From: a virus
Strand: one strand, 5' to 3'
Virus record (IMG/VR): IMGVR_UViG_3300035703_000060
Location: 1-64,000 of that record
DNA: 64,000 nt
A model generated the notes under the pieces. The model searched no databases. It had not been told where the DNA came from and worked only from the letters and a program-made list of their open reading frames with translations. Position 1 is the first letter of the stretch. Each line of letters opens with the position of its first letter. The translations under genes and the position numbers were made by a program. This document shows, in pieces, positions 31,164 through 54,175 of the stretch.

Positions 31164-31592
31164 ATGAAATCTAAAAGTTTTGACTCCTTAGATAATGTGT
31201 TGAACACATCTAGTGAAATGCAGGTTTATGAAGAACCAAAATCCTCAGAAATAAAAACTGTTGATCAATCATCAGTTGACATAAAAAAAGATTATGAGTA
31301 TACGAGAGCCAACCTCTATTCTTTAATTGAGAAGGGTCAGGAGGCGATTGATGGAATTATGGAACTTGCTGCGGAAAGTGATCAACCAAGGGCCTATGAG
31401 GTCGCTGGACAACTTATAAAGAGCGTTGGTGATGTAACTGATAAACTTATAGATCTTCAAAAAAAATTGAAGGATATAGAAGATGAAAATATAAAAACGA
31501 CAAACAATGTTACTAATAATGCAGTGTTTGTCGGATCTACATCAGAGTTATCAAAACTACTGAAGCAAGGTTTTCTAAATAATAAAGAGTAG
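31164..31592 (+). CDS. gp16: terminase small subunit gp16
   Basis: DYEYTRANL, PRAYEVAGQLIK, FVGSTSEL. Confidence 0.95.
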   Translation: MKSKSFDSLDNVLNTSSEMQVYEEPKSSEIKTVDQSSVDIKKDYEYTRANLYSLIEKGQEAIDGIMELAAESDQPRAYEVAGQLIKSVGDVTDKLIDLQKKLKDIEDENIKTTNNVTNNAVFVGSTSELSKLLKQGFLNNKE

Positions 31593-31606
31593 TTCTTTTT
31601 GATCTG

Positions 31607-33550
31607 ATGGGTTGGTCGGAAAAATATAAAAAATCTATTGATTGCGACAATCCCAAAGGATTTTCACAAAGATCTCATTGTCAAGGTCGTAGAAAAAAAT
31701 TGAAAGAGCAATTTAAATCATTTAAGACAGTTGAACAAATTGCAAAGAAGCATCGTCTTGATGTTTCTTTCATCCAAAGGCAACTTGATATGGGTGAACC
31801 AATTGAACATGAGCATACTAAAGATCATAAATTGGCCATGGAAATTGCTCTTCAACATTTGGATGAAATTCCAGATTATTATACTCGTTTGAAAAAGATG
31901 GAAGCATCTGCAAAAAAAGAACATAAAAAGTTCAAAGATGCTCCCGTTTCTGAAGGTACATTACATCATTGGTATCAAGGTTCTCGCTCAAAGGGGGGGA
32001 AACCAGGATGGGTTCAACCAGATGGGTCACCCTGTGCCAATGAACCAGGTGAAACTAAAACTCCAAAATGTTTTAGTAGTGCAAGATTAAGATCTCTCAA
32101 GAAAAAAGGTAAAAAAGGAATTTCACTTATCAGATCCGCAGTTAGACGTAAGAGACAAAAAGATAAAGGACAACAAGCAAAATCTGGGGCGGCAGCACCA
32201 ACTAATGTTCCAACATTTGCAAAGGGTAAAAAAGATCCTAACTATGTAAAGGCAGAACCAGGAATTAAAGAAGCAATGGAACTTAACGAAGCAAGAAAAG
32301 ACAAACCTGGAAAAGGTAGTGGAACTAAAGATGCTTGCTACCATAAAGTAAAGTCACGATATGATGTTTGGCCAAGTGCATATGCATCTGGAGCACTGGT
32401 TAAATGTCGTAGAGTTGGTGCTTCAAACTGGGGAAATAAATCAGAATCTTTAAACTATGATTGGGATACTCCCATTCGTGAAAGACCAGATAGATATTGC
32501 CCCAAATGCCAAAAACTAGAACTGAGGAGTGAGTGTAAATATGGTCCGAAATATTGGGATATGTTTTCATTACCTGCAGAATTAATTAGTTCAAAAAAAG
32601 ATTTTAATACAACTATGCCACACCCCGGAAATATGCCAGAGGGATACGATCACGAGTACTCAATGGCACGTTCTGAAATCTCTACAATTATTTCAGCAGC
32701 GAAAAGACTTCGTAAAAAAATGGCAAAAGGTGAGGGAAATGTTGAAGCATGGGTACAATCAAAAATTACCAAAGCAGCAGATTATTTAGATTCTGCCGCA
32801 GATTATGTTGATAGTGGTGAAATGAAGGAGCAAGTTGCAGATACTAATGCAATGTCCGACAAAAAACCATTTGATGTCGCAGTGAAAAAAATCATGGACA
32901 GGAAGGATAAAATGACTCCTAAACAGAGAATCATTGCTCTTAAACAAGCAGGAAAATTTCAAGGAGTTGATGAGCAAATGCTTCCACCAATCAATCCCGA
33001 AAAACATAAACAATTGCAAAAAACACAAAAACTTTATAATAAAGGTGCGAGTACAGATAATCCACATGAAAAAGAAATTTTCTTAAAAAGAACTGGACCA
33101 CAATTACCTTTAGCAAAAAGAGAAACTAAAACTCAAGTTGCACATTATGAACCAGAAGGTGAAGTAATTGATGAAAAGTGTTGGCCTGGATATAAAAAGA
33201 AAGGAATGAAAACAATGTTTGGAAAAAGATATCCAAACTGTGTTAAATCGGAAGAGTTCTCTAATTGGAGAGCGGATTTTGGATTATCAGAAGATTGGCA
33301 AAAAGTTAATCGCAAAGATAAGACTGATGGATTGAGCCAAGCAGCAGTTGATGCTTATCGTCGTGAAAATCCAGGATCAAAACTTCAAACTGCGGTAACT
33401 GAAAAGAAACCAAAAGGAAAAAGAGCAAAGCGTCGTGCTAACTTCTGTCGGCGTATGAAAGGCATGAAGTCTAAACTGACTTCTGCAAAGACTGCAAGAG
33501 ATCCAGATTCAAGAATTAATAAAGCACTCCGTCGTTGGAACTGTAACTAA
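31607..33550 (+). CDS. modular basic multi-domain protein, possible internal head polyprotein
   Basis: 647 aa, K/R-rich, a string of short modules; late-like TCTAAATA at 31574-31581. Confidence 0.7.
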   Translation: MGWSEKYKKSIDCDNPKGFSQRSHCQGRRKKLKEQFKSFKTVEQIAKKHRLDVSFIQRQLDMGEPIEHEHTKDHKLAMEIALQHLDEIPDYYTRLKKMEASAKKEHKKFKDAPVSEGTLHHWYQGSRSKGGKPGWVQPDGSPCANEPGETKTPKCFSSARLRSLKKKGKKGISLIRSAVRRKRQKDKGQQAKSGAAAPTNVPTFAKGKKDPNYVKAEPGIKEAMELNEARKDKPGKGSGTKDACYHKVKSRYDVWPSAYASGALVKCRRVGASNWGNKSESLNYDWDTPIRERPDRYCPKCQKLELRSECKYGPKYWDMFSLPAELISSKKDFNTTMPHPGNMPEGYDHEYSMARSEISTIISAAKRLRKKMAKGEGNVEAWVQSKITKAADYLDSAADYVDSGEMKEQVADTNAMSDKKPFDVAVKKIMDRKDKMTPKQRIIALKQAGKFQGVDEQMLPPINPEKHKQLQKTQKLYNKGASTDNPHEKEIFLKRTGPQLPLAKRETKTQVAHYEPEGEVIDEKCWPGYKKKGMKTMFGKRYPNCVKSEEFSNWRADFGLSEDWQKVNRKDKTDGLSQAAVDAYRRENPGSKLQTAVTEKKPKGKRAKRRANFCRRMKGMKSKLTSAKTARDPDSRINKALRRWNCN

Positions 33551-33551
33551 G

Positions 33552-33866
33552 ATGAAATCTTTTCAACAATTTCTATCAGAAAGTATCAATATTGCTGGAG
33601 ATTTTAATGGAAATCTCTATATGAATTCTGGATCTCAACCAGAACAAGCAACAGAATCTTTCCTTGCTGATGTAGTTTGGCAAGGTAAATTATATCGTAT
33701 GGAAGTAGAGGGTTCTATGATAGATAAGAATTCTCTTACGGAACAACTTCAAGGAGAATATCCTGGAGCAATTGTTCATAATGTTTATCCAGTACAATCT
33801 CAAAGTTCTTTAAGAATTAAAAATACACAAAGATATCAACCAGAAAGACTCACTTGGACTGATTAA
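33552..33866 (+). CDS. hypothetical protein with capsid-targeting-like N-terminus
   Basis: Begins MKSFQQFLSE. Confidence 0.7.
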   Translation: MKSFQQFLSESINIAGDFNGNLYMNSGSQPEQATESFLADVVWQGKLYRMEVEGSMIDKNSLTEQLQGEYPGAIVHNVYPVQSQSSLRIKNTQRYQPERLTWTD

Positions 33867-33868
33867 TT

Positions 33869-35455
33869 ATGGCACAATGGAACAAGTCTACACAAGATTA
33901 TCTAAATCAAGAAAGAACACTTCACGAAGTTTATCTTCGTGCTGATGAGTATGGAAATATTCTAAATGAAAGTGCTTGTGCAAAATCTGCTTTTGGTGAG
34001 AATATTGCTATTCAATTAACACCAAAAGTTCAGGGTGATGCTGTCTATGGACTAGATCCGAGAGAGTTTGAGAGATTTACTTTTAGTTCTAGTGGAATTG
34101 CTACAAATGGTAATTCTAGATTTAGAGTTGGTGCTGGAACAGATGCTAATTCTTATGGTGTTATTAGAAGTACAAACTTTTTAAGATATCGTCCTGGACA
34201 AGGCGCGGTATGTAGATTTACTGCGGCATATTCTTCCAACCCAGTAGGATTTACTCAAAGAGCAGGTTTATTCAATCAAGAACAAGCAATTCAAATTGGA
34301 TATGCCTCCACCAATGGAAAGTTTGGTGTTCTTCGTGCGAATGGTGGTAAAGCACATATTCAAATTTTTACTTTCAGTGCGTTAGCAGACGGAAATGTAA
34401 CAGTTACTCTTAATGGAACTGTTTTTACTGCGGTAACTTTAAATGCAGGGTCTGTTGCCGGAAATATTGCTCTGCTTGTACAAGGATTAGTAAGTCAATC
34501 AGCATTTACTGCTCGTTATGTGGCTGAATATGATGAAACCAGAATAAAGTTTTTAGCAACATCTCTTGGTCCACAAAATGGGACATTTAATGCAACTAGC
34601 ACCACAACAATAACGTTTACAAACACAACAAGTCAAAGTGGCGTAGCACAAACAGAGTATTGGACATTCCAAGAAGATTTTAATTTAGATAAACTTGATG
34701 GCACTGGATACTCTGGTGTTACTTTGAATCCATCAAAACTAAATGTATATCAAATTAACTTCCGTTGGTTGGGTGCCGGTGAAATTCGTTATGCAATTGA
34801 AAATCCTCATAATGGAGATATGATGTTCTTCCATCACGAACATTATACAAATAAATATGAGTTTCCACATCTAGATAATCCATCATTGAAGATTGGATAC
34901 GTAGCAGCAAACTTGGGATCTCCTACAAGTGGTGTTGTAACTTGTACTGGTTCTTCATTCCTTGGAGCTGTTGAAGGAATTGTTGAAAGGACAAGACTTC
35001 CTTATTCTATAACTGCGACCAGAACTGACTCAATGAATACTCCTGGTTCTTTATATCATCTTGTTTCTCTCAAAAATAAACTTGTTTATCAGAATAAAAT
35101 CAATACAAGAGATCTTATTGTTTCAAGACTTACTGGATCAGTAAATACTACCGGTAGTCCCGCAGTCATTTACTTATATTGGAATCCAACAATTACAAAC
35201 TATCTAAGATGGACAACTCAGAGTGATTTTAACGCATCTCTTTATGCAACCCAAGATAGTACAGGATTGTTTATATTAGGAGCACAATCAATACCACCTA
35301 TTGCCGCTTTTCATGTTTCTAATGGAGACACTATTGATGTTAATTTAATTGATATGGGCATTCATATTCCACCAAATAGTTTCTTAACCGCAGTAATTTC
35401 ATCCACAAGCAATATGACTGCTGCCAATGCTTCGTTCGTTTATGTTGAAGATTAA
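33869..35455 (+). CDS. putative virion structural protein
   Basis: 528 aa, rich in G/S/T beta-strand sequence; RYRPGQG and FRWLGAGEIR motifs; lies in the late gene cluster. Confidence 0.6.
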   Translation: MAQWNKSTQDYLNQERTLHEVYLRADEYGNILNESACAKSAFGENIAIQLTPKVQGDAVYGLDPREFERFTFSSSGIATNGNSRFRVGAGTDANSYGVIRSTNFLRYRPGQGAVCRFTAAYSSNPVGFTQRAGLFNQEQAIQIGYASTNGKFGVLRANGGKAHIQIFTFSALADGNVTVTLNGTVFTAVTLNAGSVAGNIALLVQGLVSQSAFTARYVAEYDETRIKFLATSLGPQNGTFNATSTTTITFTNTTSQSGVAQTEYWTFQEDFNLDKLDGTGYSGVTLNPSKLNVYQINFRWLGAGEIRYAIENPHNGDMMFFHHEHYTNKYEFPHLDNPSLKIGYVAANLGSPTSGVVTCTGSSFLGAVEGIVERTRLPYSITATRTDSMNTPGSLYHLVSLKNKLVYQNKINTRDLIVSRLTGSVNTTGSPAVIYLYWNPTITNYLRWTTQSDFNASLYATQDSTGLFILGAQSIPPIAAFHVSNGDTIDVNLIDMGIHIPPNSFLTAVISSTSNMTAANASFVYVED

Positions 35456-35457
35456 TT

Positions 35458-37179
35458 ATGAGCATTCAAGACATTCAACTAAAGCAAAGTGATGCTTATC
35501 TTTCTAACCCAAATTTAAAGAGAGCAAATACACAGATACAGTGGACTAAAGAGCAAATACTTGAGTTTTATGCTTGTAAAGAAGATCCAGTTTACTTTGC
35601 AAAAAATTATATTAAAATTGTTTCTTTGGATCATGGACTTGTTCCATTTGAAATGTATCCTTTCCAGGAAAGACTTGTAAATAATTTCCATAAGAACAGA
35701 TTTAATATCTGCAAGATGCCCAGACAAACTGGGAAAAGTACTACTGTAGTATCGTATCTTTTACATTATGCAGTATTTAATGATAATGTAAACATTGCAA
35801 TTCTGGCAAACAAAGCCTCAACGGCAAGAGATCTTCTTCAAAGATTGCAACTTGCTTATGAAAATTTGCCAAAGTGGATGCAACAAGGTATTCTGTCATG
35901 GAACAGAGGATCATTAGAATTAGAAAATGGATCTAAAATTATCGCCGCATCTACTTCTGCATCTGCTGTTCGTGGCGGATCGTACAATATCATCTTTTTG
36001 GACGAGTTCGCGTTCATCCCGAATCACATTGCTGATGACTTCTTTGCCTCTGTTTATCCTACTATCTCGTCAGGTCAAAGTACAAAAGTCATTATAGTTT
36101 CCACCCCTCGCGGTATGAATCATTTCTACCGCATGTGGCATGATTCTGAGAAAGGTAAGAATGAATATCTTCCTACTGATGTTCACTGGTCTGAAGTTCC
36201 TGGAAGAGATGAAAAATGGAAAGAGCAGACGATTGCAAACACTTCAGAACAACAGTTCAAAACAGAGTTTGAGTGTGAGTTTTTAGGATCGGTCAATACC
36301 CTAATTAACCCATCAAAACTAAGGAATCTTGTATACGAAGACCCTATAAAAAGAAACGCAGGTCTTGATGTTTATGAACATTCAAAAAAAGACAATAATT
36401 ATTTAATAACAGTAGACGTTGCTCGTGGAATAGGGAATGACTATTCTGCATTCGTTGTTTTTGATATCACTAATTTTCCATATAAAACGGTAGCAAAATA
36501 CAGAAATAACGAAATTAAACCAATGTTATTTCCAAGCATTATTAATGAAGTAGCAAAGGGGTATAACAATGCTTGGATTTTAATCGAAGTTAATGATATT
36601 GGAGATCAAGTATCAAATATTCTTCATTTTGATCTTGAATATGATAATATTTTAATGTGCTCTATGAGAGGTCGTGCAGGACAAATAGTTGGTTCTGGTT
36701 TTAGTGGAAAGAAATCTCAACTTGGTGTCCGCATGACAGCATCTGTTAAAAAGTTGGGTTGTTCTAACTTAAAGACTTTATTAGAAGATGATAAATTACT
36801 AATCAATGATTATGAAATGATTAGTGAACTTACAACATTTACTCAACGTCATAACTCCTTTGAGGCAGAAGAAGGATGCAATGATGATTTGGCAATGTGT
36901 TTAGTCATATTCTCATGGTTAGTTGCTCAAGATTATTTTAAAGAGATGACGGACAATGATGTTCGTAAAAGGATATATGAAGAACAAAAAAATCAAATAG
37001 AACAAGATATGTCACCATTTGGATTTATTTCGGATGGTTTAGAAGAATTTGAACCTATTGTTGACAAGGAAAATAATGATAGGTGGATATGGGTAGGGTC
37101 CGATAAAAGTAATCAAGCAATGGAAGTATGGAATATCGACGAATATGGTGACAGATCTTACATGTGGGATTATAGGTAG
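35458..37179 (+). CDS. gp17: terminase large subunit gp17
   Basis: PRQTGKST Walker A, IIFLDEFAF Walker B, VDVARG..DYS, NDDLAM. Confidence 0.97.
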   Translation: MSIQDIQLKQSDAYLSNPNLKRANTQIQWTKEQILEFYACKEDPVYFAKNYIKIVSLDHGLVPFEMYPFQERLVNNFHKNRFNICKMPRQTGKSTTVVSYLLHYAVFNDNVNIAILANKASTARDLLQRLQLAYENLPKWMQQGILSWNRGSLELENGSKIIAASTSASAVRGGSYNIIFLDEFAFIPNHIADDFFASVYPTISSGQSTKVIIVSTPRGMNHFYRMWHDSEKGKNEYLPTDVHWSEVPGRDEKWKEQTIANTSEQQFKTEFECEFLGSVNTLINPSKLRNLVYEDPIKRNAGLDVYEHSKKDNNYLITVDVARGIGNDYSAFVVFDITNFPYKTVAKYRNNEIKPMLFPSIINEVAKGYNNAWILIEVNDIGDQVSNILHFDLEYDNILMCSMRGRAGQIVGSGFSGKKSQLGVRMTASVKKLGCSNLKTLLEDDKLLINDYEMISELTTFTQRHNSFEAEEGCNDDLAMCLVIFSWLVAQDYFKEMTDNDVRKRIYEEQKNQIEQDMSPFGFISDGLEEFEPIVDKENNDRWIWVGSDKSNQAMEVWNIDEYGDRSYMWDYR

Positions 37180-42212: not shown

Positions 42213-42863
42213 ATGAAACTCATCACAGAAGAAGTATCACAAGTAAAATTTATCACCGAAGGAAAAGGTTCTCAGAAAAAACTGTATATTGAAGGAGTTT
42301 TTCTTCAAGGTGATATTTGTAATCGCAATGGAAGAATGTATCCAATGGAGACACTCTCCCGCGAGGTAAAAAGATATACAGAATCTTTTATTAACAAGGG
42401 TCGTGCTCTTGGAGAACTTGGACACCCAGATGGTCCAACAGTAAACCTTGATCGAGTTTCTCATAAAATTGTTTCTCTTACTCAAGAGGGATCTAATTTT
42501 AGAGGTAAAGCACAACTTCTCGAAACTCCAATGGGCAAGATTGCAAAATCTCTTATTGATGAAGGAGTTTGTCTTGGTGTTTCTTCTCGTGGTGTTGGTT
42601 CACTCAAAATGACCAATGAAGGTCACAAAATTGTTGGTGAAGATTTCATGCTTGCTACTGCAGCTGATATCGTTGCCGATCCTTCTGCTCCTGATGCTTT
42701 TGTTCAGGGAATTATGGAAGGTAAAGAGTGGGTATGGGAAGGCGGAATTCTTCGTGAGCAACTTGCAGAATCTACAAAACGTAGAATTAATACTTTAGTT
42801 GATGAAAGAATACTTCAAGAATATAAAGTTGAGTTGTTCCAAGAGTTTCTCTCAAATCTTTAA
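42213..42863 (+). CDS. gp21: prohead core protease gp21
   Basis: LYIEGVFLQ...NRNGR.YP, ALGELGHP, GVSSRG.GS, DIVADPSAPDA. Confidence 0.97.
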   Translation: MKLITEEVSQVKFITEGKGSQKKLYIEGVFLQGDICNRNGRMYPMETLSREVKRYTESFINKGRALGELGHPDGPTVNLDRVSHKIVSLTQEGSNFRGKAQLLETPMGKIAKSLIDEGVCLGVSSRGVGSLKMTNEGHKIVGEDFMLATAADIVADPSAPDAFVQGIMEGKEWVWEGGILREQLAESTKRRINTLVDERILQEYKVELFQEFLSNL

Positions 42864-45559: not shown

Positions 45560-45973
45560 ATGAAGACTTTTAAGCAGTTTATATCTGAAGCATTACCATT
45601 TGGTGCTGTAGTATCAACTAGTTCTTATGGTCCAGGATTATATGGAAATCCTACTGCATCTGGTGCAAAATTAACTCCATCAACTAGAGGGGTTGCACAT
45701 AAAACTTTACCTCTTGGAAGTCAGGTAAGAATTACAGATCCCAAAACAAAAAGATCAATAACTGCTCCAGTCGTTGATAGAGGACCTTATCATGGAAATC
45801 GCCAATACGACTTAACTACAAAAACAACACAAGATCTTGGATATAAAGACTATAAACAATTTGGTGTTAGAGATCTTGACGTAACACCTATAAAACCAAA
45901 ACCAAAAGTTCCAGATTTGGGTGTAAAGGTTGATATGAGTGTTCCAAAAATTGTTCCAACTAAGAAAAGATAA
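45560..45973 (+). CDS. RlpA-like double-psi beta-barrel lytic transglycosylase with capsid-targeting-like N-terminus
   Basis: SYGPGLYGNPTASG...VAHKTLPLGSQVRIT...VVDRGPY..NRQYDL. N-terminus MKTFKQFISE. TCTAAATA at 45540-45547. Confidence 0.85.
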   Translation: MKTFKQFISEALPFGAVVSTSSYGPGLYGNPTASGAKLTPSTRGVAHKTLPLGSQVRITDPKTKRSITAPVVDRGPYHGNRQYDLTTKTTQDLGYKDYKQFGVRDLDVTPIKPKPKVPDLGVKVDMSVPKIVPTKKR

Positions 45974-53437: not shown

Positions 53438-54175
53438 ATGAGAGATAAAGAATTTATAGATTTAAGTAATGCTTATAATCAAATTTGTGAGCAAAGTTAT
53501 GGGATTGATGCTTCAAAGCATGGTGGTCCAGATAAACTCTTACAAAAAATGGTTGATGAAAAGAAGAGAAGAGGTGATAAAGATGGTGGGGGAGAAGTAG
53601 TTCAAAGTGGACTTCAAAAAGCAAACTATGAACCAGAAGGTGAATTGGTACTAGAAAAGGACGAAACCGAAGAAGGTATTACTGGACTTCCAATTCCAAA
53701 AAAGAGAATGAGTTCTGCAAAAAGACATGAATTTGAAAAGAAAAGAAGAGCAGAAAGAAAAAAGCGTGGAGATGATAGAGTTGGAGATACTTTCTCTCAA
53801 CATAGAATGACTGGTAGTAGAGGGCGTGGATCTGAATATCAAAATATTCGCACAGTTCGTGAAGAAGTTCTTGTCGATTATCTTCTTGGAGAGGGTTTTG
53901 CTTCTGATGAAAAGTCAGCACAAGCAATCGCTGGTGTAATGAGTGAAGAGTGGAAAGATAATATTCTTGGAGAGGAAAAAAAAGAATTTCCAAGTGATAA
54001 AGTAAGGAAACAATCTGCTAAACATGAAAAAAATTATCTTACCAGACCAAATTCTTATTCTGGGCAAGCATCTAAATCAAAATCTAGAAAAATGAAAGCA
54101 ATTGCTTCTACTGTGGAAGTTGGTGATGACCCAAGAAATACCATGCATGGGCAGGATTTAAGAAAAATTAAATAG
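53438..54175 (+). CDS. charged modular hypothetical protein, possible internal head protein
   Basis: YEPEGE and YL..EG(F/Y)A.....A.AI...MSEEW...I modules shared with other ORFs in the window. Confidence 0.7.
   Translation: MRDKEFIDLSNAYNQICEQSYGIDASKHGGPDKLLQKMVDEKKRRGDKDGGGEVVQSGLQKANYEPEGELVLEKDETEEGITGLPIPKKRMSSAKRHEFEKKRRAERKKRGDDRVGDTFSQHRMTGSRGRGSEYQNIRTVREEVLVDYLLGEGFASDEKSAQAIAGVMSEEWKDNILGEEKKEFPSDKVRKQSAKHEKNYLTRPNSYSGQASKSKSRKMKAIASTVEVGDDPRNTMHGQDLRKIK

Follow-up and report, generated by a model that had tools for sequence, protein, structure and literature searches.

A modular basic protein between the terminase genes of a T4-like cyanomyovirus as a candidate polyprotein substrate of the prohead protease

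In bacteriophage T4, the internal head proteins IPI, IPII, IPIII and Alt carry a capsid targeting sequence (CTS), MKTYQEFIAE, and are processed by the S77 prohead protease gp21. In this leader, prohead targeting depends on residues 4 and 7, and cutting on residues 8 and 10 (PMC9026906). An Asp at position 10 of the T4 CTS prevents processing but leaves targeting intact. Here, we analyzed a stretch of 64,000 nucleotides (the window; positions 1 to 64,000 of IMG/VR virus record IMGVR_UViG_3300035703_000060) from a T4-like cyanomyovirus. An open reading frame (ORF) between its terminase genes (31607..33550, + strand) encodes a modular, basic protein of 647 amino acids (aa), which probably enters the prohead as a precursor and is cut there by gp21 at hydrophobic-x-Glu junctions. 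Among isolates, Synechococcus phage S-SRM01 is the nearest to this virus, with ~80% DNA identity in parts of the region; its counterpart of the protein is 65% identical and has the modules in the same architecture. An earlier note on this DNA had read the ORF as a packaged polyprotein processed by gp21; the modularity, the presence of homologues in virions and the logic of the junctions held up, whereas cleavage and the roles of the fragments are points that we infer.

Besides the T4-like phage and the S77 protease, the locus shares with the T4 internal proteins near-copies of MKTYQEFIAE on relatives and a neighbouring gene (MKTYSQFIEE, MKTFKQFISE, MKSFQQFLSE), predicted basic products in virions, and a variable gene content like that at the T-even IP loci (PMC9026906). 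However, the T4 proteins are single proteins that lose one short propeptide, whereas many modules are chained here, with sites at the internal junctions, and the 647-aa protein has no sequence similarity to any T4 internal protein and no CTS at its N-terminus. Head-internal proteins are also cut after Glu in phiKZ, 201phi2-1 and SPN3US, where a gp21-like protease acts on inner-body and ejection proteins at several S/A-x-E sites and the fragments are retained or cleared (PMC5694885). In these giant phages the residue at P3 (two before the P1 Glu) is A/S rather than hydrophobic, and the proteins form large paralogous families instead of shuffled mini-modules and have no sequence relationship to the present family. 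The T4 core components gp22, gp67 and gp68 are a further parallel, being cut by gp21 into small peptides. The peptides of the T4 core are for the most part acidic and largely lost from the head, in contrast to the family of the 647-aa protein, which is basic and detected in mature virions. Among the genomes compared in Sullivan 2010 (PMC3037559), only those of non-cyanophages have gp67 and gp68 listed, and a substitute for them in cyanophages is therefore plausible.

Polyvalent proteins, as described in Iyer 2017 (PMC5512222), are likewise multi-domain, highly variable in architecture and encoded beside virion genes, and the class is predicted there to be packaged, delivered and cut into functional units. 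Longer relatives of the 647-aa protein carry signature domains of this class, namely ART-PolyVal, Zeta_toxin/AAA_33, NUDIX, ParBc, lysozyme and LysM. The 647-aa protein differs in having no recognisable enzyme and no built-in metallopeptidase, its mini-modules are of 30-100 residues, and the proposed cutter is the prohead protease acting at CTS-derived hydrophobic-x-Glu junctions. The proposed system would work like the T4 internal proteins with their CTS and gp21 processing, except that many units are chained in one ORF, and it also fits the polyvalent-protein concept. Text searches of the literature by the names DUF6321 and DUF5661 (the two Pfam domains of the protein) returned no paper mentioning either; those for capsid targeting sequences and cyanophages returned no paper linking them beyond one review, and in neither set was there a paper describing such a system for cyanophages. 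Text searches of PMC5512222 found no mention of cyanophages or cytidylyltransferase.

Junctions between modules among the homologues

Homologues of the 647-aa protein were found in 475 phage records, nearly all of Synechococcus or Prochlorococcus myoviruses and some of pelagiphages, and metagenomes hold more than 8000 protein clusters of the family. Homology to P-SSM2, P-SSM4 and Syn9 proteins was detected at E values of 1e-20 to 1e-22, and the records of PSSM2_123, PSSM4_160, SSM2_109 and PSSM7_194 bear the label T4-GC119. This family is classed as 'Structural protein' and occurs in 15 of 16 cyanophages, with genes of 276 to 2985 nt (Sullivan 2010, PMC3037559, Suppl. Table 8), S-PM2 being without it (PMC3037559). 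Although the family is present in nearly all cyanomyoviruses, by which populations of Prochlorococcus and Synechococcus are controlled, its annotations go no further than 'hypothetical' or 'structural protein'. Absence from virions, raised in the earlier note as a counterargument, does not apply to the family. T4-GC119 was detected by mass spectrometry in S-SM1 virions with 13 peptides (PMC3037559), and mass spectrometry also detected a homologue in virions of S-SCSM1, whose gp029 is a 'virion protein' in the genome record; these detections cover the homologues in these two phages. Under the reading proposed here, at least some of the 647-aa protein would remain in the mature virion.

To map the modules, the query was cut into nine units, and one hidden Markov model (HMM) per unit, built from the alignment, was run on all collected proteins and loci (M0, residues 1-33; M1, 41-112; M2, 116-160; L2, 161-222; M3, 228-285; M4, 296-325; M5, 338-405; M6, 516-550; M7, 552-647). 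The HMMs gave more than 50 architectures among 240 proteins (229 non-redundant proteins surveyed). Many full-length proteins have M6 between M3 and M4, whereas others have it between M5 and M7; some relatives carry a duplicated M1, and M0 after L2 and M3 after M5 also occur; the order is M2-M6-M3-M7 in P-SSM2 and M2-M3-M6-M7 in Syn9. In relatives of more than 1134 aa, the modules occur in fusion with Zeta_toxin/AAA_33 kinases, CTP_transf_like, LysM, phage lysozyme, NUDIX, ParBc, ART-PolyVal and DUF5872. S-SM2_109, SynMITS9220M01_097 and S-SCSM1 gp029 contain DUF192 and the phrog_1742 domain as internal modules. The idea that modules come and go as cassettes was borne out, because homologues gain, lose, duplicate and reorder them as autonomous units; comparison of module order, which the earlier note had proposed as a check, showed that the order varies and that hydrophobic-x-Glu sites and fossils of the T4 CTS are located where modules start, where genes are split and where the breakpoints fall.

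The 647-aa sequence alone contains 13 copies of [LIVM]xE, with 6.5 expected (P=0.007 by shuffling), and seven of [LI]xE, with 3.6 expected (P=0.05, likewise by shuffling). This enrichment in a single sequence is only modest, and the strong signal comes from the homologues. The background density of [LIVMF]-x-E in the family is 1.9% per residue, and a site would be expected at 6-9% of the starts of M3, M6 and M7. Among distinct sequence contexts, a site was observed at the start of M3 in 81 of 84, of M6 in 46 of 47 and of M7 (E↓DWQ; arrows mark junctions) in 45 of 45, with 90 of 119 for M2 and 54 of 81 for M1. When the alignment was anchored on the Glu, P3 was hydrophobic at 36 of 38 junctions of M6, 56 of 58 of M7, 64 of 67 of M2 and 27 of 29 of M1, ranging over V, I, L, M and F, while P2 was free and P1 remained Glu. 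This pattern at P3 and P1 matches the published preference of T4 gp21, L/I-x-E (PMC9026906, PMC5694885). Across the whole alignment the Glu columns are bimodal, P3 being hydrophobic in either ~100% or ~0% of the sequences, and the columns with hydrophobic P3 at or between module edges are E34, E116, E222, E228, E292, E345, E408, E456, E523 and E562. All eight sites quoted in the earlier note are present (LKE34, VSE116, LNE228, MPE345, MKE408, VDE456, IDE523 and LSE562), and the junction logic that it saw in them is kept in the homologues, although two of the eight proved weaker (MPE345 and the M4 boundary), as described below. Seven of the nine sites proposed here lie in segments with a predicted local distance difference test score (pLDDT) below 50 in an AlphaFold2 model, the exceptions being E34 and E523.

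Gene splits and leaders were found at these junctions as well. In ~20 IMG/VR loci, M0 is a gene of its own encoding 51 aa (MKTFKQFQE↓DWSNKYKKSIDC...KSKPVE, followed by the stop codon), which ends in Glu and overlaps by TAATG the next gene, starting at M1 (MPQIKSHKTVEQ...); a GenBank example of a lone M0 gene is SynMITS9220M01_096 (39 aa). Thirty proteins of 253-337 aa (mostly ~320-330) start with MKTF(K/S)(E/Q)(F/L)xxI(A/F)E↓Q(F/I)K(S/G)HK and then run M1-M2-L2-M3, with a phrog_1742-like end in most. Their leader site aligns with the junction KLKE↓QFKSFK of the 647-aa protein, and the leader-bearing relatives whose context was examined lie between terS and terL. Leader fossils occur internally: RKTFEEFRE↓SWSNKYKK in S-SM2_108, which also starts with MKTLKQFLKE, LTFQQFQE↓KCWQGY in Syn9 gp114, and KKTFKE↓EW before an internal M0.

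In the T4-like P-SSM7_194, a single ORF of 172 aa reads MKTYSQFIEE↓G, a GLWDNIHAKRKR module, a Cys module and SVEE↓GAAWTKK-M7, whereas in the T7-like P-SCSP1q the capsid gene is immediately followed by M7 and the KRKR module as two individual genes, neither of which has a leader. T7-like phages are not known to have a prohead protease. Stand-alone DUF6321 proteins (DUF6321 being the domain of M7) start with MAKSPAW(Q/T)RK in four of the five non-T4 phages read and have no hydrophobic-x-Glu leader; this start lies within 2-3 residues of the predicted new N-terminus in T4-like polyproteins. In P-SCSP1q DUF6321 directly follows the capsid gene, in HTVC115P it lies two genes beyond the capsid gene, and DUF5661, the domain of M1, is fused to a head maturation protease (phrog_530, DUF2213) beside the capsid gene in Vibrio phage VPs20.

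Proposed processing and its alternatives

From the L/I-x-E specificity of T4 gp21 and the T4 CTS, we infer by analogy that the junctions of the 647-aa protein are cut. Cuts would be most confidently placed after E34, E116, E222, E228, E408, E523 and E562, those after E345 and E456 being less certain, and the predicted products would be ~10 pieces of 6 to 117 residues, seven of them basic (isoelectric point (pI) 9.3-11.1) and five with conserved Cys. The leaderless 647-aa copy could enter the prohead via M1/DUF5661, as the Vibrio phage fusion to a head maturation protease might suggest, or alternatively by means of the internal leader-like stretch SNWRADFGLSE. Speculatively, the peptides might neutralise DNA charge in the head or be delivered into the host with the DNA; structure, Pfam and Foldseek searches gave no fold or family match hinting at their function.

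Several observations weigh against this processing. Conserved hydrophobic-x-Glu is also found within modules, at E64, E87 (LDE87) and E599 (VTE599), and no consistent site marks the M4 boundary. Located within M5, MPE345 varies as F/M-P-E or is replaced by ANEEK in some relatives, and P3 is H, T or R at some M7 junctions. Binomial P values for the junction counts are inflated, the sequences being related, and it was the pattern that we used, not those numbers. The 647-aa protein itself starts with MGWSEKYKK and thus does not conform to the CTS (M-K-T-aromatic-x-x-F-[IL]-x-E), the stand-alone M7 of S-WAM1 starts with MQSE and is leaderless, and DUF6321 is not beside head genes in the pelagiphages HTVC034P and Skadi-8. 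Virion proteomics of Syn9 did not detect gp114 (PMC3037559). The published proteomes hold no peptide-level or semi-tryptic data, the supplement for S-SCSM1 included, and cleavage of any family member is not among the experiments reported.

Some of these points would be accommodated by an uncleaved virion protein of the 'beads on a string' type, in which hydrophobic-x-Glu is a structural feature of module starts or of linker composition. The conserved sites inside modules, the modest enrichment in the single sequence and the lack of direct cleavage data all fit such a protein, as do the small helices and hairpins joined by disordered stretches in the AlphaFold2 model, which are typical of many multi-domain proteins. 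However, the leaderless stand-alone modules of podophages are without the motif, and therefore the fold does not require it; moreover, natural gene splits and T4-type leaders fall exactly at the junctions, and Glu is kept at P1 although P3 can be L, I, V, M or F. Considering both sides, we regard an uncleaved protein as unlikely.

Another explanation, to which we assign a still smaller probability, is that only the leader-derived junctions are cut (E34, perhaps E562), leaving the bulk in the form of one or two large proteins inside the head, comparable to T4 IPIII or Alt. Leader homology is indeed strongest at LKE↓QFKSFK and SNWRADFGLSE, and T4 internal proteins lose short propeptides only (PMC9026906). 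Against this, the M2, M3 and M6 junctions are conserved as well as those of M1 and M7, and the modules between such junctions exist as separate genes or move independently. That the protein is not head cargo but a tail or baseplate part, or an intracellular DNA-binding contaminant of virion preparations encoded in a mobile hypervariable region, is very improbable, because the T4-type leaders on relatives, the DUF5661 fusion in VPs20, the position of DUF6321 near the capsid gene in P-SCSP1q and HTVC115P and the detection of the family in two independent virion proteomes outweigh the facts that the gene comes after tail-fibre genes in S-SCSM1 and S-SM2, that it is outside the structural block in P-SSM4 and P-SSM7, and that T4-GC119 is listed together with petE, PTOX, zwf and gnd in a cassette that may be mobile (Sullivan 2010, PMC3037559). 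DUF6321 as an ordered capsid decoration protein was considered and rejected, since the major capsid protein is the sole building block of the P-SCSP1u capsid (PMC10575957).

A wider proposal, to which we give even chances, is that it belongs to a combinatorial head-cargo system of T4-like cyanophages and related marine myoviruses, which are among the most abundant viruses in the sea. In this system at least 12 mini-modules would be exchanged by fusion and fission at protease sites. The pool would include basic peptides with paired Cys, DUF5661, DUF6321, DUF192 and the phrog_1742 domain, joined in the longer forms by kinases, NUDIX, ART-PolyVal and lysozyme. Every unit would get into the prohead either behind a leader of the T4 type or within a polyprotein and be released by the prohead protease, and the junctions would represent fossils of such leaders. 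Once set free, the basic peptides with Cys pairs might serve as protamine-like DNA counter-ions, disulfide-locked in the oxidised virion, or as injected effectors. If true, the missing internal head proteins of cyanomyoviruses would be identified, the capsid targeting and gp21 processing logic of T4 would extend from single proteins to a polyprotein, and T4 head logic would be linked to the predicted delivery of 'polyvalent proteins', with a concrete, sequence-defined cleavage code.

Predicted pieces of the 647-aa protein

The protein has a mass of ~74 kDa and a pI of 9.8 and contains 15.1% Lys and 13 Cys, all of which are intramodular and form pairs or a triplet (13/25, 143/155, 244/267, 298/301/310, 525/545 and 614/646). 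All eight short modules quoted in the earlier note were located in the ORF. Pfam recognised DUF5661 (PF18905; residues 43-99, 51.7 bits against a gathering cut-off of 27) and DUF6321 (PF19846; residues 570-644, 49.1 bits against 28.5) and nothing further on the whole protein, with no match to an enzyme or peptidase family; PHROGs assigned phrog_727, plus partial matches to families of widely differing lengths.

Pieces were computed for cuts at E34, E116, E222, E228, E345, E408, E456, E523 and E562 (all on the + strand). The first predicted piece, residues 1-34 (34 aa, pI 9.8; 31607..31708), is M0 with Cys13/Cys25, ends at LKE34 and is a separate gene of 39-51 aa in relatives, with the CTS-like leader MKTFKQFQE. 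Residues 35-116 (82 aa, pI 8.2; 31709..31954) correspond to M1 with DUF5661 and end at VSE116; their start, QFKSFK, aligns with the post-CTS residues IAE↓QFKSHK of leader-bearing relatives. M2 and the basic segment L2 would together form the piece 117-222 (106 aa, pI 10.5; 31955..32272), which contains Cys143/155 and ends at IKE222. The acidic hexapeptide AMELNE (residues 223-228, 6 aa, pI 4.2; 32273..32290) lies between the conserved sites IKE222 and LNE228, and it is followed by residues 229-345 (117 aa, pI 9.3; 32291..32641), holding M3 (KDACYHKVK..WPSAYASGALVKC; the intein insertion site in relatives) and M4 (CPKC..C). M5 (residues 346-408, 63 aa, pI 5.8; 32642..32830) is a helical hairpin, AWVQSKITKAADYL, that ends with GEMKE408. 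Two sub-modules make up a variable region (32831..33175), namely residues 409-456 (48 aa, pI 9.7), ending at VDE456, and 457-523 (67 aa, pI 8.2), ending at IDE523. The piece 524-562 (39 aa, pI 9.6; 33176..33292) would combine M6, a CWPGY..PNCV hairpin with Cys525/545 that is located elsewhere in many relatives, with the CTS-like stretch FSNWRADFGLSE562. The last piece, 563-647 (85 aa, pI 11.1; 33293..33547), is M7 with DUF6321 and Cys614/646, which equals the stand-alone podophage proteins and matches them in size (81-84 aa).

A probable intein of ~270 residues was observed inside M3 of the relatives P0050 (921 aa) and P0144, at WPSAYA↓C...N↓SGALVKC; the Hint match is weak (E 0.0011, below the Pfam cut-off), and the insertion point corresponds to 32372-32392 in the window (WPSAYA↓SG). 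Inteins usually occupy highly conserved, essential sites, and the probable insertion therefore suggests that M3 is functionally important. An ESM Atlas lead identifying M3 as DUF5872 (score 0.80) was dropped because hmmscan of the 647-aa protein did not confirm it.

The AlphaFold2 model, based on 92 homologues, shows short helices and hairpins linked by long low-confidence stretches; with a mean pLDDT of 51 it was too poor for fold-based arguments, which were set aside. Foldseek of the model against the PDB gave no match at E<=0.001, and a 23-residue alpha-defensin-like hairpin among its hits was not significant (E ~7-10). A search of solved structures by sequence returned a chance match only (E=0.1), and Pfam applied to single modules at E<=10 found no match for M0, M2/L2, M3 or M6.

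Gene neighbourhood and putative capsid-targeted proteins

The 647-aa gene lies in the structural block, among virion genes of a phage with a portal-terminase system. Its start had been put at 31574, which is 33 nt too early, since in-frame stop codons are present upstream of the ATG at 31607; its location between the terminase genes was verified by Pfam matches. Upstream is terS, encoding the small terminase subunit gp16 (31164..31592, + strand; PF11053). A 104-aa gene assigned to phrog_1742 (33552..33866, +) follows directly 3′, then a conserved neighbour for a 528-aa virion structural protein (33869..35455, +; phrog_1645 in PHROGs), and terL, encoding the large terminase subunit gp17 (35458..37179, +; PF03237/PF17289). 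The T4-GC119 family marks a hypervariable insertion site beside the terminase genes. In Syn9, S-CAM1 and S-WAM1, petE and PTOX, members of the 'mobile cassette' of Sullivan 2010, were found within 1-3 genes after the T4-GC119 gene.

The proposed processing enzyme, gp21, is encoded at 42213..42863 (+), where a Peptidase_S77 match (PF03420, E 7.8e-37) agrees with the earlier assignment, and the cleavage-type site FLYE↓A reported for gp23 is present as REFLYE↓AP. Two genes of the phage start with near-copies of the T4 CTS in which positions 4, 7, 8 and 10 are preserved. One is the 104-aa gene (MKSFQQFLSE), whose phrog_1742 body (YPGAIV motif) recurs as an internal or C-terminal module in the polyproteins of relatives, so that this gene and the 647-aa gene belong to one system. 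The other (MKTFKQFISE; 45560..45973), right after gp23, encodes a DPBB (RlpA-like lytic transglycosylase) protein, which from its leader would be a second capsid-targeted cargo.

A second type of leader was observed in ~20 of 91 relatives longer than 1134 aa (P0252, P0270, P0273-P0276, P0292, P0295, P0303, P0304, P0308, P0313, P0314 and P0320 are examples). It consists of MNLFDMFE... or MLLNQLF... with hydrophobic-x-E↓GGN(L/V)S behind it. As in the T4 leader, about half of these proteins have an aromatic residue at position 4, and every one of them has F or a different hydrophobic residue at position 7. An extra mini-module absent from the 647-aa protein, GL(W/Y)(A/D)NIHAKRKRGE..PG.KG.P (phrog_16028), is a lone 58-aa gene in the T7-like P-SCSP1q (gene 19, L018:4201-4377) and is fused in the T4-like relatives P0134 and P-SSM7_194 (L183:916-1434).

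When the module HMMs were run against all ORFs of the window, no further module-bearing ORF was found. A basic ORF of 245 aa (53438..54175) contains NYEPEGELVLE↓K, with a short element (YEPEGE-h-h-x-E) that the 647-aa protein also has ahead of M6; the ORF was rejected as a module carrier, its likeness being limited to the short YEPEGE motif with no match to any module HMM. On two related marine T4-like contigs, terL after the leader-bearing module protein is unusual: on one (L103:9169-13164) it encodes 1331 aa and probably contains an intein, and on the other (L104:9137-11321) it is split into two ORFs.

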